DNA of 64,000 nt from an uncultured Gemmatimonadales bacterium (GCA_963708135.1 OY970192.1:832001-896000); one strand, 5' to 3'; positions 1-13,796 are shown, numbered from the stretch's first letter. Numbers and translations: made by a program. The notes: a model not told the origin generated them from the letters alone.

Positions 1-1073
1 AACCACACCGCGTGCCGGATCCGCTCCCCCAGGCTCTCCGCTGCCGGTGTCGAGGCCAGGGCATAGGCGTTGGCGTCCATCCCCTGCGGAAACTGGATGC
101 GATAACACCCGATTCCGTCCGCCGCGAGTTGCTCGGCCAGTGCGGCCGCCGCGCTCTCGCCCGCCGCGTCCCGGTCGTAGGCGATCAGCACGCGCTCGGT
201 GCCGTATCTGCGAAACGCCTCGTGATGCGCCGCCGTGAAGCCGCTCACCCCGTAGCTCGCCGTCACGTTCCGGTAGCCCGCGCACCAGAAGCTCAGCGCA
301 TCGAGCAGCGCCTCGCACAGGATGACCTCCTTCGACTCCGCCAGCGCCGCTTCGTTCCACACCCCCGCGTGCGCCCCCGGCAGGTAGAGGTGCAGCGGCG
401 TGCCTGCCCGCAGTCCCTCCGTGATCTTGCGACCGTACATCTCCCGCACCGCTTCATCGGCATCGATCACCGGCACCACCAGCGAGCCGGTGAAATGCTC
501 GTGTCCGCTCGGTCGCAGGATCCCCAGCCGCTGCAGCCGACTCCGGATCTCCGCTCCCGCCTTGAGCGCCTTCTTCGGCAGGTGGTAGCCCAGCGTCCGG
601 TTGGCGAAGCCCAGTTGGAAGCGGTCAATATCCGCCACCTGGGCGAGGCCCCGCTTCTCCAGGTAGGCGATGGCTTCCGGACTCTCCTTCAGCGTCTCGT
701 GGTAGTAGCCCACCACCTGCTGCAGCAGCGCCTGGTCATCGACGTCCGGCTCCAGCAGCGGCGGCAGTGCTCTGGCCTTTGCACTCGCGGCGGGCGCACC
801 CCGCAGGATCTCCACCGCGTGCCGGAAGCTCACCCCCTCGCGCCGCATCACCCAGTCGATCACGCTCCCGCCCGCCTGGCACGCGCCCAGGCAGTGCCAC
901 AGCCCTTTCGCCGGGCTCACCACCAGACTCGGCTCGTGGTCCTCGTGGAACGGACACAGCCCCAGCAGGTCCGCGCCGTGCCGCCGCAGCTTCACTCCGC
1001 TCCCCTCCACCAGCCCCACCAGGTCCGCCTCGCGCTTGAGCCGCTCCAACTCCTCCCTCTGGATCCGGGCCAT
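1..1073 (-). CDS. CHC2 zinc-finger/TOPRIM DNA primase-like protein of a mobile element (runs off window edge)
   Basis: Manual translation from ATG 1073 (GGAGGAGG/AGGAG upstream): MARIQREELERLKREADLV...GLCPFHEDHEPSLVV...WHCLGACQAGGSVIDWV...ILCEALLDALSFW...LIAYDRDAAG; not in ORF track because it is open at the edge. Confidence 0.85.
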   Translation of the reverse strand, partial: MARIQREELERLKREADLVGLVEGSGVKLRRHGADLLGLCPFHEDHEPSLVVSPAKGLWHCLGACQAGGSVIDWVMRREGVSFRHAVEILRGAPAASAKARALPPLLEPDVDDQALLQQVVGYYHETLKESPEAIAYLEKRGLAQVADIDRFQLGFANRTLGYHLPKKALKAGAEIRSRLQRLGILRPSGHEHFTGSLVVPVIDADEAVREMYGRKITEGLRAGTPLHLYLPGAHAGVWNEAALAESKEVILCEALLDALSFWCAGYRNVTASYGVSGFTAAHHEAFRRYGTERVLIAYDRDAAGESAAAALAEQLAADGIGCYRIQFPQGMDANAYALASTPAAESLGERIRHAVW

Positions 1074-1176
1074 GGCTCCTGCCTCCTCCGGAAATCCCGT
1101 CAATGGACCCTTGCGTCTCTTGTGGTATGGACTAATATGTCATCATCGCACCGGACGCAAGAGAGGAGGCCTTATC

Positions 1177-1563
1177 ATGATCGACCACGTGAAGCTCTAT
1201 CCCGAGGTCGATATGGAGCAGTTCCCGGAGACCCTCAAGCTGCTGAGGGAAAGCAGGGGTCTGACGCAGGCCCGGCTTGCCGAGTTGATCGAGGCCAGTC
1301 CGCGCGTCTACAATCGGTGGGAAACGGGCGCGGCGGCCCCGCGGCTAGACACTCTCGTGAAGATCGCTGACATCCTCAACGTCAGCCTGGACGAGCTCGT
1401 CGGGCGCACCGAGCCCAGTTCCGAGGTCGAGATCCAGAATCCCAGGCTCCACGCCCTCTACCGCCACATCGATCGGCTCTCCGACGAGGACCAGCAGGCC
1501 GTCATCATCCTTCTCGACTCTCTCGTCAAGCGGTCCCAGATGGACCAGATCCTCGCTTCCTGA
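1177..1563 (+). CDS. XRE-family HTH transcriptional regulator, divergent from primase
   Basis: LKLLRESRGLTQARLAELIEASPRVYNRWETG...P Cro/C1 HTH; GAGGAGG before ATG 1177 (alternative start 1213). Confidence 0.85.
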   Translation: MIDHVKLYPEVDMEQFPETLKLLRESRGLTQARLAELIEASPRVYNRWETGAAAPRLDTLVKIADILNVSLDELVGRTEPSSEVEIQNPRLHALYRHIDRLSDEDQQAVIILLDSLVKRSQMDQILAS

Positions 1564-1741
1564 CCAGCCACCGCCGCCCACGGGAACGAGCAGCTAAAGG
1601 AAGAAGCCCGGCCATCGCTGGTCGGGCTCTCCGGCTTCATGCCTGTGTCTCGGCACCGTTGCGGGCTCCGCTCCGGCGTGCCGGCCTCGCATTATGCGCC
1701 CTCGCCCTCGGCGCGCCTCCGCTCCGGGCGCTTCGCGCCTC

Positions 1742-1760
1742 TACATAACCGGGTTATGCA
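1742..1760. other. dif-like palindrome, candidate tyrosine-recombinase site
   Basis: TA-CATAACC-G-GGTTATG-CA; CATAA...TTATG arms as in dif but with a 5-bp rather than 6-bp centre. Confidence 0.4.
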
Positions 1761-1806
1761 AACCCGCTGCGGCAGATCTCGTTGACAAAACGCCATATTC
1801 ATTTGC

Positions 1807-2256
1807 TCATTCAGAGTTCAGCGGAGACTGACTGGCAACTTGCGTCGATTCCGAGAATTCCCATGCCTTAAAAGTAATCTCGATCCACGAGTAGCCCTCG
1901 CGGCGAAATGACGCTTTGTAGCTGGGCCCGGTCAGCCGTGAACGAACCAAGGCTCCAGCATCTTCGACTCGAAGGCAAGCGATTTCGCCGAAGCCCCAAC
2001 CAAGTGATGCCTCCTTCTGCATCACTGAGTCAGAGAGTTCGTTGATAACGTGCAGTTCACTCACGCCGCAGAAGCGGATTGACACAATACGCCGGTCAGC
2101 GTATTGGGTCCGAATCGTTCCATCCTCCTGCCACACGAAGTCAATGTCGATGCTGAGGGACGCGCCCCAGTTCAGCCACTGGACGCCGACAACAACACAC
2201 TCCTCGAAATCGCGGTACGCGTGAAGCTCTGCTCTCAATACAGGCAATCCGCTCAT
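1807..2256 (-). CDS. Putative immunity protein for toxin tip 1
   Basis: 149 aa, ATGA overlap with stop of upstream Rhs-CT ORF, visibly lower GC. Confidence 0.7.
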   Translation of the reverse strand: MSGLPVLRAELHAYRDFEECVVVGVQWLNWGASLSIDIDFVWQEDGTIRTQYADRRIVSIRFCGVSELHVINELSDSVMQKEASLGWGFGEIACLRVEDAGALVRSRLTGPSYKASFRREGYSWIEITFKAWEFSESTQVASQSPLNSE

Positions 2257-4205
2257 CGATTCCAGATGTTAAGATGCGTGGTCGCGTTGGGACCAGGGTT
2301 ACCCAGCGCGTCGAGATAGTTGCGAGCTGCATTCATGATGCGCAGTTGCCAACCATTTTCCCGCCGCATTAAGCGAACTTCTTCGCCCGTTCCATTCGTG
2401 AAAAGGTAGCCACTCTTATTCTCCGTCAGTCCCATCACAAACCCGTTCTCTTTCAGAATTGCGCGAATTCCAATGATCGACTCATCCGCAAGTCCGCCTC
2501 CCTCCGAGAACAGCGCGCGTAGCCCGGCGCTCGCTCCCCGTAGCCCCCGCCCGACGGCACCACCACCCACCGTGAATGCCGCCATTGCGAAGCCGCGTCC
2601 GGCGTGACCACTCCCGATATCGAAGCCAGCATCAAACGCTGCGGTGATCGGATTGACATCGTTGATCGCATTCAACCCAGCTGCGGCATTGAGCACCACG
2701 CCGCCCAGGCCACCGCCACGCTGCGCTCCCCAATTTGCCGCTTTCTGCAAGCAATCTTCAATCGGCGGGCACAATCCGAACGGGTCGGTATAAGACGCGG
2801 GGTTGTTGCCCGCATACGCATAGAGGTTAAGCCCGCCGGCAAATCCGATGGGGTCTTCCTGCGTGAACCTCCCCAATCTGGCGTCGTAGTAGCGGTTGCG
2901 GAAGAAGGCTCCGGTCTCCTGGTTCGAGTCGCCGTTGCGGGCGGGGGCGAAGCTGTAGCTTTCGCGGATGGCACCCGACTGCGAGCCCCAGGTACTCCAC
3001 GCCGGGAGCTCGTTTCCGTTCGTGTCCGTGATGCAGTTCTCGCCCTGCGGGCCCTGGAAGCTGAACAGTCGTTCGCGATGCGTGATGAAATATGCGCGCT
3101 TGTCGTTCAGGCTGCCGAGGGGACACGCAGCGTTGCCGTACATCATCAGCGGGTCGTCGAGCCCCGGCCCGTCCACGAACTCGACCGTCGAGTGCTCGAT
3201 CACGTTCTGACCATCGTAGAAGGTCTCCGCGCCGGAGTGGGCATAAGCGCCGCGGATCCGCCGGCCCAGGCCGTCGTAGCGGAAGAAGGCGGTATCGGGG
3301 TGAGTGCCGGAGAGCTGGCCGGCGGCGCTGTAGTAGCGGTGCCAGGTGTAGGCGGTCCCGGCGTAGGTGCCCTGCTCGAGCGTCTCGTTGCCGTTCGCGT
3401 CGTAGCTGAAGTCGACGCTCTCCGGACCGGAGACGCCGCTGTAGTAGCGGGTCCGGCGGGTCACCTCGTTCGAGAGGCCGTCGAGCTGGAAGAGCACGCT
3501 GTCGGCGCACAGGCTGCCGCGCACGCACAGGTACTCTTTCACGCGGTTGCCGGCCGCGTCGTAGACCATGCTGTCGGTCGAGGACGTCCCTCCAGGGTGG
3601 CTCTGACTCGTATAGCGGATGCGCCCGCTCCCGTCGTAGGCCCAGCGGTCCACCCAGGTCGCGTTATTGGTCTCGTTGCCGCGGTTGACGACCGAATCAG
3701 GCCGCCCAGCGGCGTCGTAGGCGAAGCTCAGGTCCACGGCGGTGTCACCGCTCGTGGCGTTGACGGAGATGACGCGCGCGATCTGCCCGTCTTTCGTGTA
3801 ACCGTAGCTCGTTTTCGTGGTGTTGGGCAGCCAGACCGTGTCGCGCCGCCCGAGCGCGTCGTAGTGGAACGAGATCATCTCGCCAGCGGGCGTCTGGATC
3901 TGGGAGACGAGCCCGCCCGGCCCGAGGGTGTAGGTGTACGTCCCCTTCGGCGTGCTCAGCGTATGGCGGCCCGCCCACTGATAGGCCGAGCTGTAGGTGC
4001 GCTGCGTGCCGGACCACTTGTGGAGCTGCGTGCTTGAGGCGAGGGTGCCTTCCTTGTTGAAGACCCGCGTGACCTGCGAGCTGTCCTCATCGAGCATGGT
4101 GACGTTACCGGCCGCGTCATACTGGAGGTTGATCGTCGTGCCGACCACGCCGAGGACGCCATTCTGGTAGGTGGATGAGAGGACGCGCTGCTTCGGGCGA
4201 TTCAC
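2253..4205 (-). CDS. 5'-truncated (orphan) Rhs core with toxin tip 1
   Basis: YD repeats, RYYD...GRFTQEDPIG...NPASYTDPFGL core end, unique C-terminus; no signal peptide; copy of the main Rhs. Confidence 0.8.
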   Translation of the reverse strand: MNRPKQRVLSSTYQNGVLGVVGTTINLQYDAAGNVTMLDEDSSQVTRVFNKEGTLASSTQLHKWSGTQRTYSSAYQWAGRHTLSTPKGTYTYTLGPGGLVSQIQTPAGEMISFHYDALGRRDTVWLPNTTKTSYGYTKDGQIARVISVNATSGDTAVDLSFAYDAAGRPDSVVNRGNETNNATWVDRWAYDGSGRIRYTSQSHPGGTSSTDSMVYDAAGNRVKEYLCVRGSLCADSVLFQLDGLSNEVTRRTRYYSGVSGPESVDFSYDANGNETLEQGTYAGTAYTWHRYYSAAGQLSGTHPDTAFFRYDGLGRRIRGAYAHSGAETFYDGQNVIEHSTVEFVDGPGLDDPLMMYGNAACPLGSLNDKRAYFITHRERLFSFQGPQGENCITDTNGNELPAWSTWGSQSGAIRESYSFAPARNGDSNQETGAFFRNRYYDARLGRFTQEDPIGFAGGLNLYAYAGNNPASYTDPFGLCPPIEDCLQKAANWGAQRGGGLGGVVLNAAAGLNAINDVNPITAAFDAGFDIGSGHAGRGFAMAAFTVGGGAVGRGLRGASAGLRALFSEGGGLADESIIGIRAILKENGFVMGLTENKSGYLFTNGTGEEVRLMRRENGWQLRIMNAARNYLDALGNPGPNATTHLNIWNR

Positions 4206-4207
4206 TC
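2844..4207. repeat. 1,364-bp near-identical copy of 9207-10570
   Basis: Constant offset 6363; only difference noticed is 3556 G vs 9919 T (YDAAG vs YDEAG). Confidence 0.9.
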
Positions 4208-4697
4208 AGGACGAGGTACGTCTCCTCCTCGAGCTGCTGGCGATGTACGACCGGCAGATCGCGGCCGTGGAGGAAGCGATGGTCTTCGCCCTCCGTCGGG
4301 CCCCGGAGGCGAAGGCGCTGATGTCGATCCCCAAGCTCGGCGCGGTCACCGCGGCTGTCTTCCTGGGTTCGATCGGCGATCCGAGGGCGTACGAGTCGAG
4401 CCGGCAGGCGCTCCGCGTGGGTGGCCTCTCATTGGTCGTGCAGGAGAGCGGGCTGCTCCGCGGCAAGCCGCGCCTCAGCAAGCGGGGCCGGCCCGAGATG
4501 CGACGGCAGGCGTACATGTTCGCGGCCGCAGCGTGATGAAGGGTGGGCTCTACCGGGAGGCGTTCGACCGCGCCCTGGCCGAGAACCCGCAGAAGCCGAA
4601 GAAGAAGATCCTGGTGGCCCTGGCGCGGCGCGCCACGAAGCTCATGTTCAGCGTCGCGCGGGACCGGAGGCTGTACACGCCGGATGGCCCGAAGTAG
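4208..4697 (+). pseudogene. IS110-family transposase C-terminal fragment, frameshifted near 4527-4536
   Basis: SIPKLGAVTAAVFLGSIGDPRAYESSRQ...ESG...LSKRGRPEMRRQAYMFA, then in another frame SVMKGGLYREAFDRALAENPQKPKKKILVALARRATKLMF...PK*. Confidence 0.9.
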
Positions 4698-4975
4698 GAT
4701 TCCGGCAGGTGAAAGAGCGGAAGGGCTGCGGCATCCTGCCGAGCCCTCCCGCGAGCACCAGACGCAGGCTGGAGAGTGGAGCCGGCAATCCATCGAAGGA
4801 GTTGCAGAAGCGCTCGGCGCCGCAGCTCGCTTCCGAATGCTGGAACGCTCCCTCCGGCCCAGAGCCCGCTCAAGTCTCCGAGGAAGGCGTGTCGAGGACC
4901 CTCCGGGGTGCCTCCAAGGAACTGAGGGTATCGAGCTACGCGAGCCCGAGCGGTCTGGGTGCGATTTGACAACTC
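4698..4975 (+). ncRNA. Bridge-RNA-like structured noncoding region, copy A
   Basis: Directly 3' of IS110 gene; blocks conserved with 7653-7949; closing stem GCACCAGAC(4755)/GTCTGGGTGC(4953); two internal-loop hairpins. Confidence 0.65.
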
Positions 4976-5028
4976 CGTATACTACCTGCCGAGACCCCGA
5001 CCGGGCGGTCGCGGCACCAGTGGCGCGT

Positions 5029-5215
5029 GCCCGGCGTGGACCCGCCATGTCCCTTGAGGCGGCGTTGCCGGCCTCCGATGGTGGACTCGGTCACGTCGGG
5101 CAGCGCGCTCTTTCACGTCAAACACCCACCGACAGCGCTGCCCGGCATGGGTCCGACAATCCGGTTGAGGCGCGTCCTGCGGCCTCCGATACCGGACTCG
5201 ATCATGCCGGGCAGC
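5029..5215 (+). repeat. Two 73-nt hairpin units with variable internal loops (A1 5029-5101, A2 5140-5212)
   Basis: Scaffold GCCCGGCRYGG..CCGA-N10-GAGG(hairpin)CCTC-N7-GGACTCGRTCRYGYCGGGC. Confidence 0.85.
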
Positions 5216-5220
5216 TTCGG

Positions 5221-5622
5221 CTACCGCCTGACCGGTTCACCGTCGATGCTTACGCCGCGGGCGATGACGACGAGCGACGCAGCATCATCGAAGTATAGGC
5301 GGTAGCGCGTGATTGGAGGGCGCGGCACTGTCTCGTGCCAACCCACTGAAGTGTTCCAACGAGCCTCCAGCTCTTGAATGTCGGCGGCAGCTGTCTCAGC
5401 CACGATGTAGTCCGGTCCGATGACGTCTTCTTCTACGCAGACGGCGCCCGCCGTGTATTCGACCCGAAGCACGTCGGAGAAGGTGACTTCGGTCCATTTC
5501 GTCTCTCCTTCTTCAGTAGTGTCGTACCGAACCGTTGCGAAGCCTTCGGACATGTTCACGACCGGACCAGCCAGCGTGTGACTGGTGCGGCGTGGCAGAT
5601 CAATCAAGGTCGTCATGTTCAC
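5221..5622 (-). CDS. Putative immunity protein for toxin tip 2
   Basis: 133 aa, GTGA overlap with tip 2 stop; lower GC. Confidence 0.7.
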   Translation of the reverse strand: MNMTTLIDLPRRTSHTLAGPVVNMSEGFATVRYDTTEEGETKWTEVTFSDVLRVEYTAGAVCVEEDVIGPDYIVAETAAADIQELEARWNTSVGWHETVPRPPITRYRLYFDDAASLVVIARGVSIDGEPVRR

Positions 5623-6124
5623 CTGATTACAGGGGTGAACGTCGGAGATGCAGAGCCCGCCATCTCAGCGAGGCGTTCCGTTAGCTGCCTCTCAAACATT
5701 GCATTGCCCGTAACATTGTTGATTACGGTCGGCCTCATGCCCGCGATCCTCAACGCCATCAGCGAGCGGTTGTTCATCGTGTACGACACGCCATCTCGAA
5801 CAACGACGTTTAGGGGCAGCTGACTTGGTGTGATCGCACCGCTTCTCAGGCCGGCCGCCACATCAGAGATCGACTGACCTGCAAACTCGCCGTGACGGAA
5901 GCTCGACGAAATACCCCTCTGGGCGAACTGTACCGCTCCCTCGTCAGCGGCTGCGGTGGCGACGCTGCGTCCGATCAGTGCTCGGATCCCGCCTGCGATG
6001 CCGCCTGCGAGAAACGCTACCGGATCTAGCAGACCAGGGCCACGGAGACCTGGTTCGTGTCCTGGACACCCCGTATGCCACTCAGTCTCCGGAGGGCACA
6101 ATCCGAAGGGATCGGTATAGGAGG
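5619..6124 (-). pseudogene. Orphan Rhs toxin tip 2, ParB/Srx-like toxin domain
   Basis: Begins SYTDPFGLCPP with no Rhs core; FAQRGISSSF...L..G.I.P.QLPL.V...G..Y..NNRSL.AL..AG resembles Tox-ParB-like domains. Confidence 0.75.
6112..6124. repeat. 13-bp direct repeat TCGGTATAGGAGG, left junction (partner 9148-9160)
   Basis: Exact match at both ends of the 3,036-bp unit. Confidence 0.85.
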
Positions 6125-6440
6125 GACGCCTCTAACCCAATGCGCCCCGATTCGGCCTCCGATCAGCCTACCTCCGACGCCACCTCCCGCCGTCTCAATC
6201 AGCCCTCCTGACACCCTCCCGAACAGCGAAACCCTTCACCATACCACCCGCAGCTCCACCGCCTCAGGCGGGGTCGACTGCCTTCCATTCACCCGGATTC
6301 CGCGCCCGATCCTGGCGGTGATACGGTTCCGGGTTCCGCCTCCGTCCCGGCGGCCCCGGCTCAGAGCGCCATAGAGCACGATTCCGCCATCGGTGCGGCC
6401 CACGGTACCGCTCTGGTCCACTTCAACCAGGAGCGAGACC

Positions 6441-7652
6441 ATGAGCCGTTTCGAGAAGCGCCGCCGGGCCCAGCGCGCCGCCGCCGTCGCCGGAGTGGAC
6501 GCGGGCAAGCGGAAGCACGCGATCGCGGTCCGGCCGCGCGGCGGCGAGGATAGCACGCCGCTCGAGTTCCAGACGACGCGAGCCGGCTTCGAGACCGCGG
6601 TCCGCGCGATCCTCGAGAACGCTCCGGGCACACGACCCGAGGACGTGCTGGTCGGCATTGAGTTCGCCGGCAACTACGGCTTCACCTTCGCCCACTTCCT
6701 GCGCGACCGCGGCTTCCAGGTCGTGAACGTGCTCGGCGCCCACAGCAAGCGCTGGAAGGAGGTGGTCCACAACCAGGGGCTGAAGAGCGACCCCAAGGAC
6801 GCGCTCACGATCACCGACATGGTGGCGCAGGGCGCCTTCGTCGGCTTCCCGTTCCTCGAGCAGGTCTACGCCGACCTGCGCTACCTGGTCAGCATGCGCG
6901 AGCGGCTGACGAAGCTCCGGAGCGCGACGATCGCGCGGCTGAAGGACGTGCTCCAGGTCGTCTGGCCGGAGTTCGAGCGGCGCTTCAAGAACTTCAGCAA
7001 GAAGACGCCGATCGCGATCCTGGAGGCGTTCCCCGGGCCGGATGCGTTCCTGCGCGCACCGAAGCGGCGCGTGCTGAAGGTGATCCGGGAGGCGAGCCGG
7101 GGTCATCTGGGCGAGGCCGCCTACGAGCACCTGCGGTGCGCGGCCGAGGACACCGTGGCGCTCCCCGGCGCGCAGGGCGTGCTTGCGCAGGAGGTCGGCC
7201 TCCAGCTCGATCTGCTCGCGTCCTACGAGCGCCAGATCGCCGAGGTCGAGCGCCTCATGGCCGAGCGGCTGGTGGACGCGCCGGAGGCGCCCTCGCTCCT
7301 CTCGGTGCCGAAGCTCGGCGCCGTGACGGCCGCCGTGTTCCTCGGCTCGATCGGCGACCCGCGGGCCTACGACTCGAGCCGGCAGGCGCTCAAGGTCGGC
7401 GGCCTCGGGCTCGTCGTGAGCGAGAGCGGCGCCCAGCGCGGCCGGCCCGAGCTCCGGCGCCAGATGTACATGTTCGCGGTGCGGAGCGTGAGCCGGGGCG
7501 GCCTGTTCCGGGCGGAATACGAGCGGGCGCTCGAGCGCAATCCGAACACGCCGAAGAAGAAGGTGCTGGTCGCGCTCGCGCGGAAGGCGACGCGGCTCAT
7601 GTTCGCGCTCGCGAAGGAGCGGCGGCTGTACACGATGGAACCGCCGCGGTAG
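6441..7652 (+). CDS. IS110-family DEDD transposase/recombinase
   Basis: GVDAGK, GIEFAG, KSDPKDA (DEDD), SVPKLG HhH, ESG serine loop, KKKVLVALARK; AGGAG before ATG 6441. Confidence 0.93.
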   Translation: MSRFEKRRRAQRAAAVAGVDAGKRKHAIAVRPRGGEDSTPLEFQTTRAGFETAVRAILENAPGTRPEDVLVGIEFAGNYGFTFAHFLRDRGFQVVNVLGAHSKRWKEVVHNQGLKSDPKDALTITDMVAQGAFVGFPFLEQVYADLRYLVSMRERLTKLRSATIARLKDVLQVVWPEFERRFKNFSKKTPIAILEAFPGPDAFLRAPKRRVLKVIREASRGHLGEAAYEHLRCAAEDTVALPGAQGVLAQEVGLQLDLLASYERQIAEVERLMAERLVDAPEAPSLLSVPKLGAVTAAVFLGSIGDPRAYDSSRQALKVGGLGLVVSESGAQRGRPELRRQMYMFAVRSVSRGGLFRAEYERALERNPNTPKKKVLVALARKATRLMFALAKERRLYTMEPPR

Positions 7653-7949
7653 GTTGGGGGAATCAACACCATGGGAGGGCCGGCTGGCGCGGTGCGCGCC
7701 GGCCCTCCTACAGTGCACCAGACGCAGGCCGGGGGATGGAGCAGAAGAATCCATCGAAGGGGCCGTCTCGCACGAACGTGAGGCCTGCTTCCCAAGGTCG
7801 GACCCGCTCCCCCTGACCCAGAGTTCGCCACAGTCTCCGAGGAAGGCGTGTCGAGGGCCACGCGCGGCAGACGCCGCCACGGTGCCTCCGAGGACTTGAG
7901 GGTATCGAGCTACGCGATCTCGAGTGGTCTGGGTGCGATTTGACAACTC
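7653..7949 (+). ncRNA. Bridge-RNA-like structured noncoding region, copy B
   Basis: Closing stem GCACCAGAC(7715)/GTCTGGGTGC(7927); conserved AATCCATCGAAGG and AGTCTCCGAGGAAGGCGTGTCGAGG with variable-length hairpins. Confidence 0.65.
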
Positions 7950-8006
7950 AGCGCTTGCCTTCGCCGTCGCGGCGTCGAGCCGGCCGCGACGGAACGGGTG
8001 GCGTGT

Positions 8007-8293
8007 GCCCGGCGCGGATCCGACATCCAGCCTGAGGCGGCCCAGCCGGTCTCCCATGATGGACCTGATCGCGTCGGGTACGCTCTTCCTCATGGGCATC
8101 GGCGCCGGCATGGATCCGAGAACCCGGACGAGGCGCGTTCTGCGGCCTCCCATGTGGGACTCGGTCGTGCCGGGCCGCACCTCCCCGCCGGGCTGGCCAA
8201 CGGGGAGGTGAGCGGAACGGGGCCGGTGTGGATCCGATAATCCGGTCGAGGGGTCACGGACCGCCTCCAACATCGGACTCGATCGCACCGGCC
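8007..8293 (+). repeat. Three 73-nt hairpin units (B1 8007-8079, B2 8103-8175, B3 8221-8293)
   Basis: Same scaffold as A1/A2 with compensatory stem changes and distinct loops. Confidence 0.85.
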
Positions 8294-8670
8294 TATTTCT
8301 TTCGCCGCATCGATTCCTCTGTTTGGCTACAGACCGCGGTCATCGCTGGCCCCATGTACGACCGGGCAGTTTTCATCCAGTCCGAATTGTCGGTTAGCCT
8401 CTCGCAAACGCTGAATGCGGCAATCTCCTGCACCTTCGGATCCGGATGGGCGGCCAGTATTTCGAGGGAGTCGAAGACTCTCCGAATCTCGGCCCCGTCA
8501 TTCCGCTCGATCGCGGCGATAAGATGCGGGGTGAGCAGATCACCATAGATGATGTGAGGGCCGGGACGTTCAGTGCCCCACCATTCCAGTTCTTTTTCGT
8601 ACTTTTCCCTCAACTCTGGTATGCTGGTGATCAAGTGATCCACAACAGTCTCGTATTTGATCTCTGTCAT
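8293..8670 (-). CDS. Putative immunity protein for toxin tip 3
   Basis: 125 aa, TGATG coupling to Rhs stop, lower GC. Confidence 0.75.
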   Translation of the reverse strand: MTEIKYETVVDHLITSIPELREKYEKELEWWGTERPGPHIIYGDLLTPHLIAAIERNDGAEIRRVFDSLEILAAHPDPKVQEIAAFSVCERLTDNSDWMKTARSYMGPAMTAVCSQTEESMRRKK

Positions 8671-11600
8671 CAGTGCCCTCGAAGTGCATTCTGGAGGTCC
8701 GTAAGAACTCGCTGGGCGGTTGTTCGGTCGGCAGCGCTGAGCTCCTCCTGCTGAAGAATTCGTTGAAGCTGACGGGCACGCTGTTGGCCCTTGAGAAGAT
8801 GCGACCGGCCTCCCACGAGTTCACCGGTCCGTAGCTCCTCCCTGATTGCTCCAGCGGTCCCGCCAGGTAGCTTGTCGCCCGCACGGAACAGTTGCTCGAT
8901 GGCGCCTTGGAGGCGTGCGTTAGCGGCTGCCGGGATCTCATTCGCGAAGGCCCCGTACTGACGAATACGATTTGCATTTCGCAGTCCCTCAACAAGACCC
9001 CCTCCCACTGCTCCGAGGGCGGCGTCTGTGATTCCCTGGGAGAGTGTATAGTCCCCCCCGAGCGCTTTCGTGATAAGGTAACCCTCGGCGACACCTACAA
9101 CGGCACCTGCGGCGATTTCAAAGCAGATCGGGCAGAGTCCAAACGGGTCGGTATAGGAGGCCGGATTATCCCCGTTGTAGCTGTAGAGGTTGAGCCCGCC
9201 CGCAAGTCCGATGGGGTCTTCCTGCGTGAACCTCCCCAATCTGGCGTCGTAGTAGCGGTTGCGGAAGAAGGCTCCGGTCTCCTGGTTCGAGTCGCCGTTG
9301 CGGGCGGGGGCGAAGCTGTAGCTTTCGCGGATGGCACCCGACTGCGAGCCCCAGGTACTCCACGCCGGGAGCTCGTTTCCGTTCGTGTCCGTGATGCAGT
9401 TCTCGCCCTGCGGGCCCTGGAAGCTGAACAGTCGTTCGCGATGCGTGATGAAATATGCGCGCTTGTCGTTCAGGCTGCCGAGGGGACACGCAGCGTTGCC
9501 GTACATCATCAGCGGGTCGTCGAGCCCCGGCCCGTCCACGAACTCGACCGTCGAGTGCTCGATCACGTTCTGACCATCGTAGAAGGTCTCCGCGCCGGAG
9601 TGGGCATAAGCGCCGCGGATCCGCCGGCCCAGGCCGTCGTAGCGGAAGAAGGCGGTATCGGGGTGAGTGCCGGAGAGCTGGCCGGCGGCGCTGTAGTAGC
9701 GGTGCCAGGTGTAGGCGGTCCCGGCGTAGGTGCCCTGCTCGAGCGTCTCGTTGCCGTTCGCGTCGTAGCTGAAGTCGACGCTCTCCGGACCGGAGACGCC
9801 GCTGTAGTAGCGGGTCCGGCGGGTCACCTCGTTCGAGAGGCCGTCGAGCTGGAAGAGCACGCTGTCGGCGCACAGGCTGCCGCGCACGCACAGGTACTCT
9901 TTCACGCGGTTGCCGGCCTCGTCGTAGACCATGCTGTCGGTCGAGGACGTCCCTCCAGGGTGGCTCTGACTCGTATAGCGGATGCGCCCGCTCCCGTCGT
10001 AGGCCCAGCGGTCCACCCAGGTCGCGTTATTGGTCTCGTTGCCGCGGTTGACGACCGAATCAGGCCGCCCAGCGGCGTCGTAGGCGAAGCTCAGGTCCAC
10101 GGCGGTGTCACCGCTCGTGGCGTTGACGGAGATGACGCGCGCGATCTGCCCGTCTTTCGTGTAACCGTAGCTCGTTTTCGTGGTGTTGGGCAGCCAGACC
10201 GTGTCGCGCCGCCCGAGCGCGTCGTAGTGGAACGAGATCATCTCGCCAGCGGGCGTCTGGATCTGGGAGACGAGCCCGCCCGGCCCGAGGGTGTAGGTGT
10301 ACGTCCCCTTCGGCGTGCTCAGCGTATGGCGGCCCGCCCACTGATAGGCCGAGCTGTAGGTGCGCTGCGTGCCGGACCACTTGTGGAGCTGCGTGCTTGA
10401 GGCGAGGGTGCCTTCCTTGTTGAAGACCCGCGTGACCTGCGAGCTGTCCTCATCGAGCATGGTGACGTTACCGGCCGCGTCATACTGGAGGTTGATCGTC
10501 GTGCCGACCACGCCGAGGACGCCATTCTGGTAGGTGGATGAGAGGACGCGCTGCTTCGGGCGATTCACTCCGTCGTACTGGATCGCGACGGTGCTGCTGT
10601 CGCGGTTCCTGCGGAGCGTCAGGTTGCCGGCGAGGTCGTAGGCATGGAACTCCGTTGCTCCCATCCCATCGATCATCGCGGTATCCTCGCCCAGCGCGTT
10701 GTAGTGCCAGCTGCGGGAAAAGGTCATGCGCGGGTCGACAGCCGTTGTCCGGTCGCCATCCGCGTCGTACGTGAAGTGGCTCGCACGTCTGTAGACGCCG
10801 TCGTAGTGATCCACCTCGGTGAGATTCCCCAAGGCGTCATGCACGTAGGTCAAACTGTCGCCAACGGGATTGGTCACCCGCCGAACCTGGCCGTTGGCGT
10901 CGTACGCGTAGCTCGTGGTGTGACCCTCGGGCGTGGTGCTCGAGAGCAGGTTGCCAGCATTGGAATCGTCGTTGGCGAGGATGGTGCTGAGATCCTGCAC
11001 GGTATCGCCGTAGACAGGTACCGACTGCTCGGTCACGCTCGCGACCTGGCCGCGCGAGTTGTAGGTGAAGCTGGTCTCGTGACCACGCGGGTCGATGACA
11101 TTGTCGAGCGTCCCGTCCGTGGAGCTGTAGTTGAAGGTGGTCGTGTCTCGGGTCGCGCCCGAGCGCGGTGCGATGACCTTCCACGGTTTGTCGGGTGCGG
11201 CGGTCGAGTAGAGGTAGACTGTGGAATCCGCGCCCGCGCTGGATGTGAGGTCCGCGGCGTTCCGAACGCGGCCGACGACGTCGTACGCAGTGGTGGTCTG
11301 GCGGCCGTTCGGCCAATCGACCTCCTTCGGCAGCAGCGGGAAGTTGGAGTCGTACGTCAGCACGGTGGTGTTGCCCACGGCGTCGATGATCCTCGTCGGT
11401 GCCCCGAAGCGGTCGAGGTAGAACTTCGTGATCTGAATGGTGTGGGTGCGCGGTCCCCGCACCTCGAAGTCCGCGCTTGCCGCGGCGTAGGTGTCGTTCA
11501 GCCCGGTCGCGGTCGTTGCGAGGCCGAGAGTCTGGAGAGGAGTGAACGTTGTCACGGGTGTGCCGGCGCTGACCGTCGGCAGCGTGTCGGCCGCGAGCAG

Positions 11601-13796
11601 CGCGGTCTCGCCCGTATACGAGTACTTCGTCGCATGGCCAAGGCGTGAGGTCCAGCGCGTCAGCAGGTGAGCGGCGTAGGCAAGCACGATCGCGGAGTCG
11701 GGGCGGTCCGGAAGGTAGAAGTCGGTCAGATCGCCCGAGCCGTTGACGGTGATGTTCATGGCGCGCGAAGCAGGGTCGGTGACCGCGCTCAGCTTCGCGT
11801 TCGGGCTGCCGTAGGCGAAGGTGTAGACCCTGCTCTGGTCCCAGGGTGCGATGCGGATCTGGGAGACCCCACTGCCCGCCCCGCCCGTGTAGCTGTACTG
11901 CACCTTGTTCGAAACGCGATCCTGGACCCAGGTCTCCTGGCCGGCCGTGTTGAAGTAGAGCTGGGTGCCGTCGAGCAGCCGCCGGCGGTAATGGGTCGTC
12001 GAGCTCCCGCTCGGATCGACCGCTGTCTCGTAGAAGATGGTGTCGCGGTGCGCACCGACGGGGGCGAGGTAGGCGCTGCCGCCGATGGCGTCGTAGACGG
12101 CCGTGCTGCCGTCCCCGTCGACGAGCAGGACCGCGGTTCCGGATCGCTGGTTCGGGTAGAGCTCTTCGACACCCGCGATGCCCCAGCCGGCCCCGTAAGG
12201 ACCCGCGGAGCGATTCACGACGATCAGGTCGCCGCTCGCCGCCGTCTCGCAGGTGGCACAGATCGTGTCGCTGTAGACATCGGCCACCGTCAACGTGAAG
12301 GTGTGCAGGCCCGTCGTGACGCCGGCGGCCGCCGCGTCGAACCCGACCGCGATCCGACGGGCGTTGCCGCCAGGGGCAATGCGAAGGTCGTTGAACCAAC
12401 GCACGGCCCGCGTGACGCCATCGACGACGAGGGTGGCCTTAAGGCTGTCGGGCACGCGGATGCCCAGGTCGAGCGCGACATTCGCGAGCACGATCGGATA
12501 CGGCTTTGCCGTTCCGCTCGTGTAGAGCAGCGTGAGGGCGCGGTCGCGGTTCATGGTCCGGTAGGCCGGCATCCCCTGTGCGACGAGCAGCTCACCGCAT
12601 TGCGAGGCGCCGGCCGGTCCCGCGCCGACCGTGACGCACGAGGAGCGGGGCATGAGCGAACCGGGGTTGATCGCGGCGTTGACCTCGATCGGGCCCTCGG
12701 GGGCCGTGGGGTTCCCCACCGTGACGTTGTAGGAGCCGCTGTCGCTGCCGCCGGTCCCGGTGGCGGTGAGCGTGATGGTCCCGTAGCCGGCCGAGGCGGC
12801 CGAGAACCTGACGGTCACGGAGCTCGCGCCGTTCGCTCCCACCGTTACGGATGGATCGACCGAACAGTAGGTCACCTGACCGGTGAACCCGCACGCGAGC
12901 GTGTAGGTCAGAGGGGAGCCGTTCGGATTCGAGACGGTGAAGAACGCGCCATTGCCAGACGTGTTGGCGTTTACCGTCAGGCTGCCACTGTCTGGCGTCA
13001 CGGATGGAGGCAGGGTGCCCGATGGATTCACCGTGAACGTCACGGCCACGCTCTGCGGCGAGTTGTCGGCGTTCGCATCGGAGACGCTCACGCTGCCGGT
13101 GTAGGTTCCGGTGGCGAGCGTGCCGGTATGGGCCGTGACGCTGACGCTGCCGTTGCCGGTTCCAGATCCCGGGCTCACGCTCAACCAGGATGCTCCCGGT
13201 GAAGCCGTCCAGTCGAGCGTGCCGCCGCCCGAGTTGGTGACGCTCACGCTCTGTGGTGCCGGATCCGCTCCGCCCTGCGACGCGCTGAACGAGAGGCTCG
13301 TCGGACTCAGGACGATGTGCGGCGTCGTCGTCTGGAGATTGACATAGCAGTTCGTGTATTCGGCAGGTGGCGGGCTGTTCGGCAGGCTCGGCGCTGGCGA
13401 CGCGCCCTGGTTGGCGACGCTGAGCGTGACGTAGCCGTTGCTCGGGCTGGACCCGACGGCGTAGGTGATCGTCACGTCGGCGGCGCTGCCCGCCGCGATC
13501 GTGATCGAGCTCTGTACGGAGCAGGACGTAACGGGCGCCACGAACGAGCATCCGAGGTCGTACGTCGTCGTGGGGTTGTTCTTGTTGTCGAGGTGGAAGA
13601 TGGCGCCGTTTCCGCTGCTGTTGGGCGCGACCGTCATGGGCGAGTTCGTCGCCGAGACGGTCGGGAGTCCCGTCCCCGTCTCGGGGCCACCAACCGCGTG
13701 CGCTGGCTGGCCGACGAGCGCCGCGATGGCGCCGAGGGTGAGGATGCGAGCTGCGGAACGAGCGGCAGCTCGAATGGAAGGCCGCGTTCTGGGCAT
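8670..13796 (-). CDS. Full-length Rhs/YD-repeat polymorphic toxin with signal peptide and BACON/Ig-like N-terminal domains
   Basis: N-terminal basic+hydrophobic segment ending AHA; SPTSLSF...WLSVSP BACON-like; YD repeats; QEDPIG...DNPASYTDPFGL; variable C-terminal tip. Confidence 0.92.
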   Translation of the reverse strand: MPRTRPSIRAAARSAARILTLGAIAALVGQPAHAVGGPETGTGLPTVSATNSPMTVAPNSSGNGAIFHLDNKNNPTTTYDLGCSFVAPVTSCSVQSSITIAAGSAADVTITYAVGSSPSNGYVTLSVANQGASPAPSLPNSPPPAEYTNCYVNLQTTTPHIVLSPTSLSFSASQGGADPAPQSVSVTNSGGGTLDWTASPGASWLSVSPGSGTGNGSVSVTAHTGTLATGTYTGSVSVSDANADNSPQSVAVTFTVNPSGTLPPSVTPDSGSLTVNANTSGNGAFFTVSNPNGSPLTYTLACGFTGQVTYCSVDPSVTVGANGASSVTVRFSAASAGYGTITLTATGTGGSDSGSYNVTVGNPTAPEGPIEVNAAINPGSLMPRSSCVTVGAGPAGASQCGELLVAQGMPAYRTMNRDRALTLLYTSGTAKPYPIVLANVALDLGIRVPDSLKATLVVDGVTRAVRWFNDLRIAPGGNARRIAVGFDAAAAGVTTGLHTFTLTVADVYSDTICATCETAASGDLIVVNRSAGPYGAGWGIAGVEELYPNQRSGTAVLLVDGDGSTAVYDAIGGSAYLAPVGAHRDTIFYETAVDPSGSSTTHYRRRLLDGTQLYFNTAGQETWVQDRVSNKVQYSYTGGAGSGVSQIRIAPWDQSRVYTFAYGSPNAKLSAVTDPASRAMNITVNGSGDLTDFYLPDRPDSAIVLAYAAHLLTRWTSRLGHATKYSYTGETALLAADTLPTVSAGTPVTTFTPLQTLGLATTATGLNDTYAAASADFEVRGPRTHTIQITKFYLDRFGAPTRIIDAVGNTTVLTYDSNFPLLPKEVDWPNGRQTTTAYDVVGRVRNAADLTSSAGADSTVYLYSTAAPDKPWKVIAPRSGATRDTTTFNYSSTDGTLDNVIDPRGHETSFTYNSRGQVASVTEQSVPVYGDTVQDLSTILANDDSNAGNLLSSTTPEGHTTSYAYDANGQVRRVTNPVGDSLTYVHDALGNLTEVDHYDGVYRRASHFTYDADGDRTTAVDPRMTFSRSWHYNALGEDTAMIDGMGATEFHAYDLAGNLTLRRNRDSSTVAIQYDGVNRPKQRVLSSTYQNGVLGVVGTTINLQYDAAGNVTMLDEDSSQVTRVFNKEGTLASSTQLHKWSGTQRTYSSAYQWAGRHTLSTPKGTYTYTLGPGGLVSQIQTPAGEMISFHYDALGRRDTVWLPNTTKTSYGYTKDGQIARVISVNATSGDTAVDLSFAYDAAGRPDSVVNRGNETNNATWVDRWAYDGSGRIRYTSQSHPGGTSSTDSMVYDEAGNRVKEYLCVRGSLCADSVLFQLDGLSNEVTRRTRYYSGVSGPESVDFSYDANGNETLEQGTYAGTAYTWHRYYSAAGQLSGTHPDTAFFRYDGLGRRIRGAYAHSGAETFYDGQNVIEHSTVEFVDGPGLDDPLMMYGNAACPLGSLNDKRAYFITHRERLFSFQGPQGENCITDTNGNELPAWSTWGSQSGAIRESYSFAPARNGDSNQETGAFFRNRYYDARLGRFTQEDPIGLAGGLNLYSYNGDNPASYTDPFGLCPICFEIAAGAVVGVAEGYLITKALGGDYTLSQGITDAALGAVGGGLVEGLRNANRIRQYGAFANEIPAAANARLQGAIEQLFRAGDKLPGGTAGAIREELRTGELVGGRSHLLKGQQRARQLQRILQQEELSAADRTTAQRVLTDLQNALRGH
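9148..9160. repeat. 13-bp direct repeat, right junction inside rhs (A-S-Y-T-D codons)
   Basis: TCGGTATAGGAGG identical to 6112-6124. Confidence 0.85.
9207..10570. repeat. Source copy of the 1,364-bp Rhs duplication
   Basis: Matches 2844-4207. Confidence 0.9.

Follow-up and report, generated by a model that had tools for sequence, protein, structure and literature searches.

To our knowledge, bridge and seek RNAs have so far been described as one RNA that carries one target loop and one donor loop, and the bridge RNA of IS621/IS110 is said to have been reported by Hiraizumi and colleagues in 2024. In Rhs orphan arrays, displaced C-terminal tips with immunity genes come after a main rhs gene, and the tips are demarcated by Asp-Pro-x-Gly-Leu. 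Classical Rhs orphans keep a core-coding stretch for homologous exchange, and the shuffling of tips in polymorphic toxin loci has until now been ascribed to homologous recombination. Here, we describe an rhs locus of an uncultured Gemmatimonadales bacterium (host genome of 5.45 Mb, 72% G+C, one contig) in which an IS110-family element is followed by an array of small hairpin units, an immunity gene and an Rhs toxin tip. Positions are those of the window, the whole 64,000-nt stretch of DNA analyzed. We consider it probable that the units are target-binding loop (TBL) modules of the guide RNA of an IS110 bridge recombinase, that a separate module, M2, is the donor-binding loop (DBL), and that the whole cassette, toxin tip included, is mobile.

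In the parts of the cited articles that were available to us, the bridge RNA of IS621/IS110 is presented as one RNA of 177 nt, encoded upstream of the recombinase gene, with one TBL and one DBL (Durrant 2024, PMC11208160; PMC13626964), and the seekRNA of IS1111-type elements as a single RNA of 82-96 nt that accompanies transposases of 330-350 aa and subterminal inverted repeats (Siddiquee 2024, PMC11187229). Two further systems are known to us from such parts of their sources: the ssr9 module of ISPpu9, which lies between copies of the IS end boxes, controls translation by means of an antisense RNA and is dispensable for transposition (PMC12288879), and the Moraxella invertase Piv, a relative of IS110 recombinases with which the host rearranges its DNA so that a surface or secreted protein is altered (PMC11187229). 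One preprint places IS110 transposases near WXG toxins and gives no mechanism. A full-text literature search for IS110 together with Rhs, polymorphic toxins or tandem target-binding loops returned no description of the arrangement reported here.

Read along the minus strand, the locus consists of the rhs gene, a DUF7674 gene, units B3, B2 and B1, the IS110 element, a displaced tip with a small gene, units A2 and A1, and a truncated IS; the same layout recurs upstream in the genome (IS copies 2, 3, and 5). The RHS-repeat gene, including its tip, encodes 1708 aa (13796 to 8670, minus strand; Pfam RHS_repeat, 2.8e-24). Its resident core with the RHS repeats occupies 9161..13796, and the toxin tip, from the junction to the stop codon, occupies 8670..9160, begins with Ser-Tyr-Thr-Asp-Pro-Phe-Gly-Leu codons and matched no Pfam family. 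The adjoining immunity-type gene (8293..8670, minus strand) encodes a DUF7674 protein of 125 aa (Pfam, 2.8e-17), and unit B3 abuts this gene and ends on its stop codon. The IS110-family element starts at 6125 with GACGCC, immediately next to the rhs codons of the displaced tip. Sequence homologous to intact rhs core ends extends up to 6124, and the same left junction is present in IS copies 2 and 3. Behind the left end (6125..6392, plus strand) lies the gene for a DEDD recombinase of 419 aa (6393..7652, plus strand; Pfam DEDD_Tnp_IS110, 9.6e-24; Transposase_20, 3.6e-10), for which a phmmer search of the PDB gave 0 relatives at E 0.001.

The 3' non-coding region, also on the plus strand, begins with M1, a weak unit-like module (7727..7821; covariance model [CM] score 29.6 bits, E 0.005), and continues with M2 (7833..7907), a conserved motif, GGGTGCGATTTGACAACTC (7931..7949), that is present in all lineages and is not the end of the mobile segment, and a spacer hairpin with a 10-bp stem (7964..7992); read by eye, the sequence of this hairpin varies in other copies and the hairpin is retained. 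Units B1 (8006..8083), B2 (8102..8179), and B3 (8220..8297) follow as the first, middle and last of the array. On the other side of the left end, the displaced (orphan) toxin tip (5619..6124, minus strand) starts exactly at Ser-Tyr-Thr-Asp-Pro-Phe-Gly-Leu codons. After it come a gene of 133 aa (5221..5622, minus strand), an open reading frame for which a Pfam search gave no match and which is presumed to be an immunity gene, then A2 (5139..5216, plus strand) and A1 (5028..5105, plus strand), the last and first units of a neighboring older cassette, and finally a truncated and diverged (69-88%) older IS110 copy (4171..4975, plus strand) that carries M1, M2 and TTGACAACTC. The stretches 6094-6124 and 9130-9160 form a direct repeat of 31 nt (84%), 3036 bp apart, which codes for Gly-Leu...Tyr (Tyr-Thr-Asp-Pro-Phe-Gly-Leu). 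Judged from the sequence, 6125-9160 is one cassette of 3036 bp that displaced the tip at 5619-6124; its own tip now continues the resident core in frame, and A1, A2 and the truncated IS stem from the cassette before it. We infer that the first codons of the cargo toxin tip form the right end of the element.

The first-pass annotation had proposed five structured units in this window, and two methods placed them where it had. A repeat finder returned a single family with five copies of 74 nt (at 5031, 5142, 8009, 8105, and 8223; 64-82% identical to the reference copy), and the CM scored the units, ~73-78 nt in length, at 78.3 (A1), 84.3 (A2), 77.7 (B1), 80.2 (B2), and 86 bits (B3). The shared motif CCGA-N10-GAGG is present in four of the five units, A1 having CCGC, and CCTC-N7-GGAC is likewise present in four, B1 having TCTC. 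In the fold, an outer stem of ~15 bp leads to a large internal loop, beyond which lies the inner hairpin GAGGNNN/NNNCCTC. The compensatory stem changes described earlier were also recovered: for 12 genome copies RNAalifold predicted 21 pairs, 7 with compensatory changes, and in 112 copies from relatives (80 distinct rows) 96.3% of cells pair and 17 of the 21 pairs vary at both partners (a level reached by none of 500 shuffles; 0.407 vs 0.023-0.055 in slid controls), in an alignment that was fitted to the model and so favors it. Folded as plus-strand RNA, B1, B2 and B3 reach -36.3, -43.5, and -42.1 kcal/mol (z -1.9, -2.7, and -4.18), and the minus strand folds worse for all three (z -0.14, -1.6, and -3.70). 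An Rfam 15 covariance search of 4000-9500 at E up to 1 matched no family to the units; its sole hit, CC2171, falls within the recombinase gene and is attributable to chance (19.2 bits; gathering score, 75). A promoter and terminator scan of 6000-8800 returned 0 and 0 sites, and a look-up of RNA runs containing 6100-8700 returned none.

The units occur in one place of the genome. An nhmmer profile built from the five units gave 13 matches, all on the plus strand between 809.6 and 840.3 kb (next match, E 3.7), and the CM, with 150 of 13,619 first-look candidates scored, gave 14, all inside the same 31 kb, in one rhs locus and on the transposase strand; this makes the five window units plus nine more copies. 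With 14 of 14 and 13 of 13 matches confined in this way, the units are not the genome-wide REP-like repeats that had been named as a finding that would speak against the first reading. Each of the five IS right ends in the genome has a spacer of ~50 nt with a hairpin and then a co-diverged first unit; two further first units, behind IS copies 3 and 5, which are 65-75% identical, are themselves diverged. The units always sit between an immunity gene and the next element.

Related recombinases were found in Gemmatimonadota records (Longimicrobiales, Gemmatimonadales), at 8 genome loci and 78 metagenome loci. The genome loci hold 30 CM unit matches, with none in the one whose recombinase is 47% identical (L004), and the metagenome loci hold 112, of which 111 lie on the recombinase strand. 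Of the 45 related loci where the gene end is complete and the downstream sequence extends for 800 nt or more, 44 carry one to three units within 900 nt after the recombinase gene; the recombinase of the exception is 37% identical. Arrays of one, two and three units account for 17, 26 and 10 of the 53 non-redundant arrays, the units form three positional subtypes in fixed order, and fixed-subtype arrays of two to three units persist across recombinases of 53-67% identity. The units thus appear as a family feature of a Gemmatimonadota IS110 lineage. The label "CRISPR-like," which the first-pass annotation had attached to them, does not suit one to three positional paralogues in conserved order that are 64-82% alike, with no growing spacer list.

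The 5' sides of the internal loops read GACATCCAGCCT in B1, GAGAACCCGGAC in B2, GATAATCCGGTC in B3, and GACAATCCGGTT in A2. As first noticed, B3 carries the 10-mer GATAATCCGG at 8236-8245, the complement of which, CCGGATTATC, stands at 9161-9170 in the resident core and is the half-site matched by B3, and the B1 string ATCCAGCCT agrees with ATCCGGCCT at 8 of 9 positions. The 10-mer GATAATCCGG has six exact plus-strand occurrences in the genome, five of them in units, and its complement has two, both at rhs core ends with Asp-Asn-Pro codons. The loops had been described simply as different. They are not freely variable, as GATAATCCGG or a 1-mismatch form of it is the 5' loop in 8 of the 14 genome copies; what does hold is that different guides occur within one array.

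When unit arms were compared with the flanks of their own and of other loci, both arms fitted their own locus better. For the 5' arm, the 12 nt before the inner stem, the best register was -15..-4 from the Tyr/Phe codon in 20 of the 24 loci with both units and an intact rhs core end, a register that covers the codons Gly-Asp/Asn-(Asn)-Pro-x. Identity was 8.35 of 12 for the own locus vs 7.42 for cross pairs, a difference reached by 0 of 10,000 permutations (n=20 non-redundant loci), and 9.6 vs 9.2 with G-U pairs allowed (p 0.022); cross pairs score high because the rhs codons are conserved. Examples are GGCGACCCGGTT vs rhs GGCGACCCGGTC in L012/L014 and, in this window, the 5' side of B3 vs GATAATCCGGCC, where B3 pairs with the rhs top strand at 9159-9170. 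Set against all right junctions, including those adjoining another IS, the 5' arms gave no significant signal (p 0.245). The 3' arm has the top-strand sequence of the left junction, that is, the last Tyr/Phe-x-Asp-Pro bases of the displaced tip and the first bases of the left end, with 7.50 of 9 for own vs 6.62 for cross pairs (a difference that none of 3,000 permutations reached; n=20) and no signal in the controls (right junction, p 0.71; antisense strand, p 0.48); it is exact as ACGTGACACC in L056 and takes the form TAT[A/G]ACGGAC in L009. The loop-to-junction comparison, suggested at the outset as a check alongside the covariance model, came out with own above cross for either arm.

The units of the window itself fit unequally. 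Pairing with the local rhs is 12/12 for B3 (11 Watson-Crick and one G-U), 11/12 for A2 (with the rhs core ends at 841155 and 2784772), 9/12 for B2 (to rhs core ends), 7-8 for B1 and 6 for A1, and the 3' arms of B1-B3 fit the local left junction mainly in GGAC, with 7/9 at best. A genome search for full composite sites of B1, A1, B2, A2 and B3 with at most 4 mismatches gave none that was convincing; a site at 11238, taken up for B1 from a 1-mismatch match, did not fit. In this window, a target is verified for the 5' arm of B3 and, less well, for that of A2 only, and the local array may have decayed in part or may address sites that this genome lacks. Among the 36 arrays of at least two units, the Asn/Asp-Pro codon string belongs to the last unit in 28 and to the first in 2, and first-position units carry unrelated guides. 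The suggestion that the array covers synonymous Asn-Pro variants finds no support, since only B3 pairs at 12/12 and the first-position guides are unrelated.

M2 (7833-7907) has the features of a donor-binding loop, and we assign it as such by comparison among lineages. Its inner stem is GAGGGCC..GGTGCCTC, and its 5' side, AGGCGTGTC, can pair with GG|GACGCCT, which consists of the left end and two bases of the flank; corresponding pairs are AGGAGTTTC vs GA|GACTCC in L011 and GGGGTGTC vs GACACCCC in many loci. The 5' arm matches the left end of its own locus at 7.00 of 9 vs 6.50 for cross pairs (p 0.0032, n=17), with p 0.51 in the control against the right junction. The 3' arm corresponds to the top strand where the toxin tip begins, right of the block, and different lineages provide the paired examples GGCTAG/GGCTAG, GGCTAC/GGCTAC, GCCA/GCCA, GCAA/GCAA and GTTA/GTTA; here the signal is weak (own 5.75 vs cross 5.38 of 9, p 0.0106, n=20), and the controls were not significant (p 0.36 and 0.18). 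The M1 guides of four copies had no target near rhs loci. Since no other module of the non-coding region (M1 and M2 compared) carries an rhs guide, the rhs-directed unit, 100-470 nt downstream of M2 and behind the hairpin as the units are, is the only candidate TBL.

Pairs of matched flanks also occur outside rhs genes. In three relatives (L044, L042 and the contig pair L045+L048), a segment from the left end to ..ATCGGTATAGGCTA (..GGTATAGGCTA), comprising left end, units, immunity gene and first toxin-tip codons, sits in non-rhs DNA. In L044, the 5' side of unit U1, GTGCTGTGAG, agrees with the right flank, TTGCTGTGAG, at 9 of 10 positions (an exact copy lies 100 nt further on), and its 3' side, GAGAAACAC, agrees at 9/9 on the left, where the junction reads GAGA|AACAC. 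In L042, U2 has 11 exact nucleotides on the right flank and 9/11 on the left. In the third case, the right flank is seen in L045, where U1 matches 9 nt exactly, and the left flank in L048, a near-identical copy, where it matches 10 nt exactly. The toxin tip in L044 has an in-frame stop two codons upstream and would therefore be silent. A further "both flanks" match, in L024/L025, was dropped: the left flank there is an rhs tip with Leu-Ser-Asp-Pro-Phe-Gly-Leu codons, and the 8-nt match on the right is likely due to chance.

Two conclusions follow from these relatives: (i) because the two matched half-sites of one unit bracket the whole segment, the toxin tip and the immunity gene are cargo, and (ii) because one unit matches non-rhs flanks and the last unit rhs codons, different units of one array name different sites. 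The cassette boundaries can, on this comparison, be regarded as settled for the lineage of L042/L044/L045-L048. The earlier interpretation as a whole stands in part. Its stand-alone target-binding loops are supported by units that are separate from M2, whose two arms co-vary with their own locus and one of which matches both non-rhs flanks; its CRISPR-like character, its synonymous coverage and its IS insertion site are not.

A different origin of the array has to be weighed at this point, namely, that the units are inert tandem duplicates of one bridge-RNA loop, left by sloppy (half-match) IS110 recombination, with a likeness to the target that is due to descent. Tandem non-coding repeat units beside IS110 transposases (n=468) have indeed been tied to half-match events, according to the available part of a preprint (10.64898/2026.08.14.744561), and in the window four of the five units lack a full target and the 3' arms fit the local junction poorly. 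Against this, fixed-subtype arrays are maintained among recombinases that share 53-67% identity, compensatory changes preserve 17 of 21 pairs, units in first position fit the sequence on both sides of the non-rhs insertions in L042, L044 and L045/48, and the rhs-directed unit is the only candidate TBL, with no other non-coding module carrying an rhs guide. We therefore hold this origin to be improbable and prefer units that act as target-binding loops.

The right boundary bears on whether the cassette moves as a whole. Among the loci listed, the right junction lies 1.03-1.54 kb beyond the M2 start in 21 of 23 and always at the first codons of a toxin tip. The junction, first taken for the rhs insertion site of an IS, is an in-frame fusion point of a cargo toxin tip and no simple disruption. 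Alternatively, a plain short IS (6125 to ~7949) without cargo could lie beside pre-existing units and orphan tips, the layout having arisen by segmental duplication and homologous recombination in an rhs hotspot. The locus is in fact rich in duplications (8.1 kb at 98%) and deletion junctions, similarity between copies falls for ~45 nt after TTGACAACTC, and TTGACA near 7940 resembles the -35 box that an IS110 right end contributes to a promoter formed at the junction, as described in the accessible part of PMC12288879. A short IS in the rhs core end should, however, have its right end followed by CCGGATTATC, and the genome contains no such junction, the 10-mer being found only at the two intact core ends. 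Moreover, L011, L012 and L014 (~93% identical, with different flanks) share a block of ~1950 bp made up of left end, M1, M2, GGGTGCGAxTTGACAAC, units and terminal hairpin; since this homology runs on through the units to the terminal hairpin, TTGACAAC is not the end of the conserved block. With the matched half-sites in L042, L044 and L045/48 bracketing the whole segment, toxin tip included, a short IS without cargo seems to us quite unlikely, and a cassette that moves together with its units and tip is the better account.

Several other observations concern the boundaries. Against the proposed cassette stands the finding that the blocks of L011 and L014 are 93% identical and carry different cargo; in its favor, contigs of another sample (X2/X3) keep the units (7482-8290, 51 differences) and the rhs junction, with a different 804-nt module between them. 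TTGACAACTC had been considered as a right terminus matched by the M2 3' arm (6/7 in two lineages, by eye), and this failed in the GGGGTGTC group; the far IS copy at 2.795 Mb, tried as a source of termini, is a deleted remnant from which none was obtained. Comparison of the contigs of four DNA runs with 4000-10000 yielded no circle and no empty-site joint, and two joints, 8222>9142 and 10000>4000, can be traced to the paralogous copy 2 and to an rhs fragment.

That the units act as DNA or within the rhs transcript, either as REP-like stabilizers or terminators of the minus-strand immunity-gene mRNA or as attC-like sites bounding toxin cassettes, would agree with the end of B3 on the immunity-gene stop codon, the good minus-strand fold of B3 (z -3.70) and the constant position between immunity gene and next element, and is nonetheless very improbable given that 14 of 14 copies lie undispersed in one locus, that a terminator scan of 6000-8800 found no site, that the minus strand folds worse for all three B units (B1, z -0.14), that the recombinase strand is kept in 111 of 112 matches, that units stay with the recombinase at non-rhs sites beyond the reach of any rhs transcript, and that the co-variation of loop and flank would go unexplained.

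If the units are target-binding loop modules, the system may work as follows. An array of two to three separate TBL hairpins would be encoded downstream of the recombinase gene and M2. The 5' side of the internal loop of a unit would pair with the top strand of the right half of the target, and the 3' side would repeat the top strand of the left half, continued by the opening bases of the left end. The final unit of the array (B3 in this window) would be aimed at the conserved rhs end, Gly-Asp/Asn-Asn-Pro | x-Tyr/Phe-x-Asp-Pro-x-Gly-Leu, and the other units of the array would direct the cassette to non-rhs sites. The mobile segment (6125-9160) would consist of left end, recombinase gene, M1/M2, units, immunity gene and Rhs toxin tip, with its right end in the first toxin-tip codons, so that an excised circle would join ..GGTATAGGAGG to GACGCC. 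Insertion at an rhs core end would then join the cargo tip to the resident core in the same reading frame and push the old tip downstream, beside the left end.

Comparison among loci shows the matches between guides and flanks, the structure, the linkage and, in relatives, where the cassette is bounded; further, we infer the transcription of the units from the plus strand, their binding by the recombinase, the mobility of the window cassette and the position of the core dinucleotide. Guide matches alone cannot name the RNA strand, because a reverse-complement RNA would give mirrored matches. The plus strand is preferred because of the co-orientation with the recombinase gene and the better plus-strand folds. 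Plain homologous recombination between the 31-nt flanking repeats could also move tips.

Measured against the described guide RNAs, the locus combines shared and divergent traits. As far as the consulted portions of the IS621 articles (PMC11208160; PMC13626964) go, both systems have a recombinase with DEDD and Transposase_20 domains, a structured RNA, predicted in the present case, whose internal loops have two guide arms each, one pairing with the top strand of the core and right half and the other addressing the left half, and a target and a donor loop whose additional bases fit the partner once strands have been exchanged ("handshake"). In contrast to IS621, the modules here lie downstream, the order of the arms is reversed, the DBL module is separate and two to three TBL-like hairpins follow it. 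With the IS1111-type seekRNA, as portrayed in the part of PMC11187229 at hand, the locus shares a non-coding region downstream of the gene and a top-strand match 5' of the bottom-strand match; unlike those elements, it has a recombinase of 419 aa, within the 395-455-aa range of the IS110-containing subgroup, a left non-coding region of 268 nt and a long right one. Like bridge RNAs, the units are adjacent to the recombinase gene and on its strand, have a fold kept by compensatory change and a partner donor loop, and show arm-to-flank co-variation, which holds for the family and, among the window's own units, for the 5' arm of B3 only. A TBL and a DBL, one each, in one RNA of ~80-180 nt are not what is seen here, where there are two to three units, apart from M2.

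Other comparisons are also partial. Similar to ISPpu9 with ssr9 (PMC12288879, in the part available), an IS110 element here has an extra, putative small-RNA module downstream that is able to travel along; unlike ssr9, the units carry target-matching arms and are not flanked by the IS end boxes of such modules: TTGACAAC occurs once per IS copy and is absent after the units, and no left-end-like sequence was found before the units when read by eye. Expanded IS110 elements (10.64898/2026.08.14.744561; 10.64898/2026.08.31.748434, both from partial text) resemble the cassette in having cargo, a size far above 1.5 kb, tandem non-coding repeats by the transposase and one-sided guide matches at boundaries. 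Their cargo is mostly plasmid-derived DNA and resistance genes, the repeat units are treated as expansion products and not as guides, and the terms toxin, Rhs, orphan and target-binding loop do not occur in the main text, as available, of 10.64898/2026.08.14.744561. Piv works by inversion of a fixed segment, and the accessible portion of PMC11187229 mentions no guide RNA for this enzyme; the arrangement here points instead to cassette insertion under RNA-type guides. Unlike classical orphans, the displaced tips begin exactly at the junction codons and abut the IS110 left end: a [Tyr/Phe]-x-Asp-Pro-x-Gly motif adjoins the left end in 40 of the 67 assessable related loci, and the remaining 27 "non-rhs" left flanks are an over-count, because the Leu-Ser-Asp-Pro variant of L024/L025 is missed by the motif.

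Compared with known bridge recombinases, the apparent novelty is thus a detached array of multiple target loops together with a promoterless toxin-tip cargo. We lean, with some reserve, toward an IS110 lineage that has become specialized as an RNA-guided vehicle for promoterless Rhs tips, in which one loop arms any matching rhs gene and the others park a silent cassette. Such a cassette would combine a tip and its immunity gene with the recombinase and a donor loop, and it would add an array of target loops that are independent of one another; a new tip spliced in frame onto rhs would arm the cell and demote the old toxin, and the other loops would park the silent cassette at neutral sites.

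If true, this would be a natural split and multiplexed bridge-RNA system, in which detached, multiple target loops show one recombinase using alternative guides. It would also bear on multiplexed and split-guide designs, which the available portion of PMC13626964 mentions only as an engineering step. The reading is open to ordinary tools, namely, RNA sequencing, circle PCR and a two-plasmid insertion assay. For the biology of the family, it would mean that polymorphic toxin loci have an RNA-guided, site-specific route by which to acquire and shuffle C-terminal tips, and it would provide an RNA-guided mechanism for the long-known "rearrangement hotspot" behavior of rhs loci.

Between the recombinase gene and the donor-binding-loop module of the IS110-family element lies a further unit-like module, M1 (window 7727-7821), which scores 29.6 bits against the covariance model of the unit and has arms of its own, GAAGAATCCATC and CCAAGGTCGGAC. 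No site matching these arms was found near either of the two rhs loci of the genome. In the second of these loci (genome 2777141-2795634, forward strand) the core ends code for GACAACCCGG and GACGACCCGG; GACAACCCGG is one mismatch away from A2, a unit of the older cassette, and likewise one mismatch away from B2, a unit of the local array. Nearby, at genome 2795105-2795634, the IS110 element of the window recurs as a remnant left by deletion.

The left non-coding end of a paralogous IS110 copy (copy 2) is interrupted by an IS256-family (Mutator) transposase gene at genome 813574-815015 (L001 13574-15015). At genome 827040 (about position 11040 of L002), a first-type unit is represented by its 3' half, which is joined to a fragment of the rhs core at a 5-nt microhomology, CGGCC. 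The fusion deleted the IS, and no other unit array lacks an IS beside it.

Outside rhs genes, the site occupied by the cassette in the relative's locus L044 (7845-7975) is in non-coding DNA, where the CTCACAG motif recurs and a hairpin precedes a run of T. The guide of the unit has another exact match 100 nt beyond this site, and that one is unoccupied.

A genome-wide listing of every TTGACAAC also surfaced a repeat of about 120 nt, GACTGCGAATAGCGCGG..AAGTCCCCAA..GGGGAGTTGACAACGAATAGCGCGGTCAACTCCCCAAC, which occurs more than 30 times, genome-wide and on both strands (for example, outside the window at genome 522236, 3343742, and 4311191). In contrast to the units, this repeat seems to be genuinely dispersed among intergenic regions.

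The left part of the window (1-4205) belongs to an 8.1-kb segmental duplication, in which genome 828096-836199 is 98% identical to genome 817914-826017. Inside the duplication is an element of about 6.6 kb, whose products include a 320-aa tyrosine integrase and a primase/Toprim protein of 1025 aa. Because this element is bounded on each side by a copy of the rhs core-end sequence, the core end is used by a second kind of mobile element as well.
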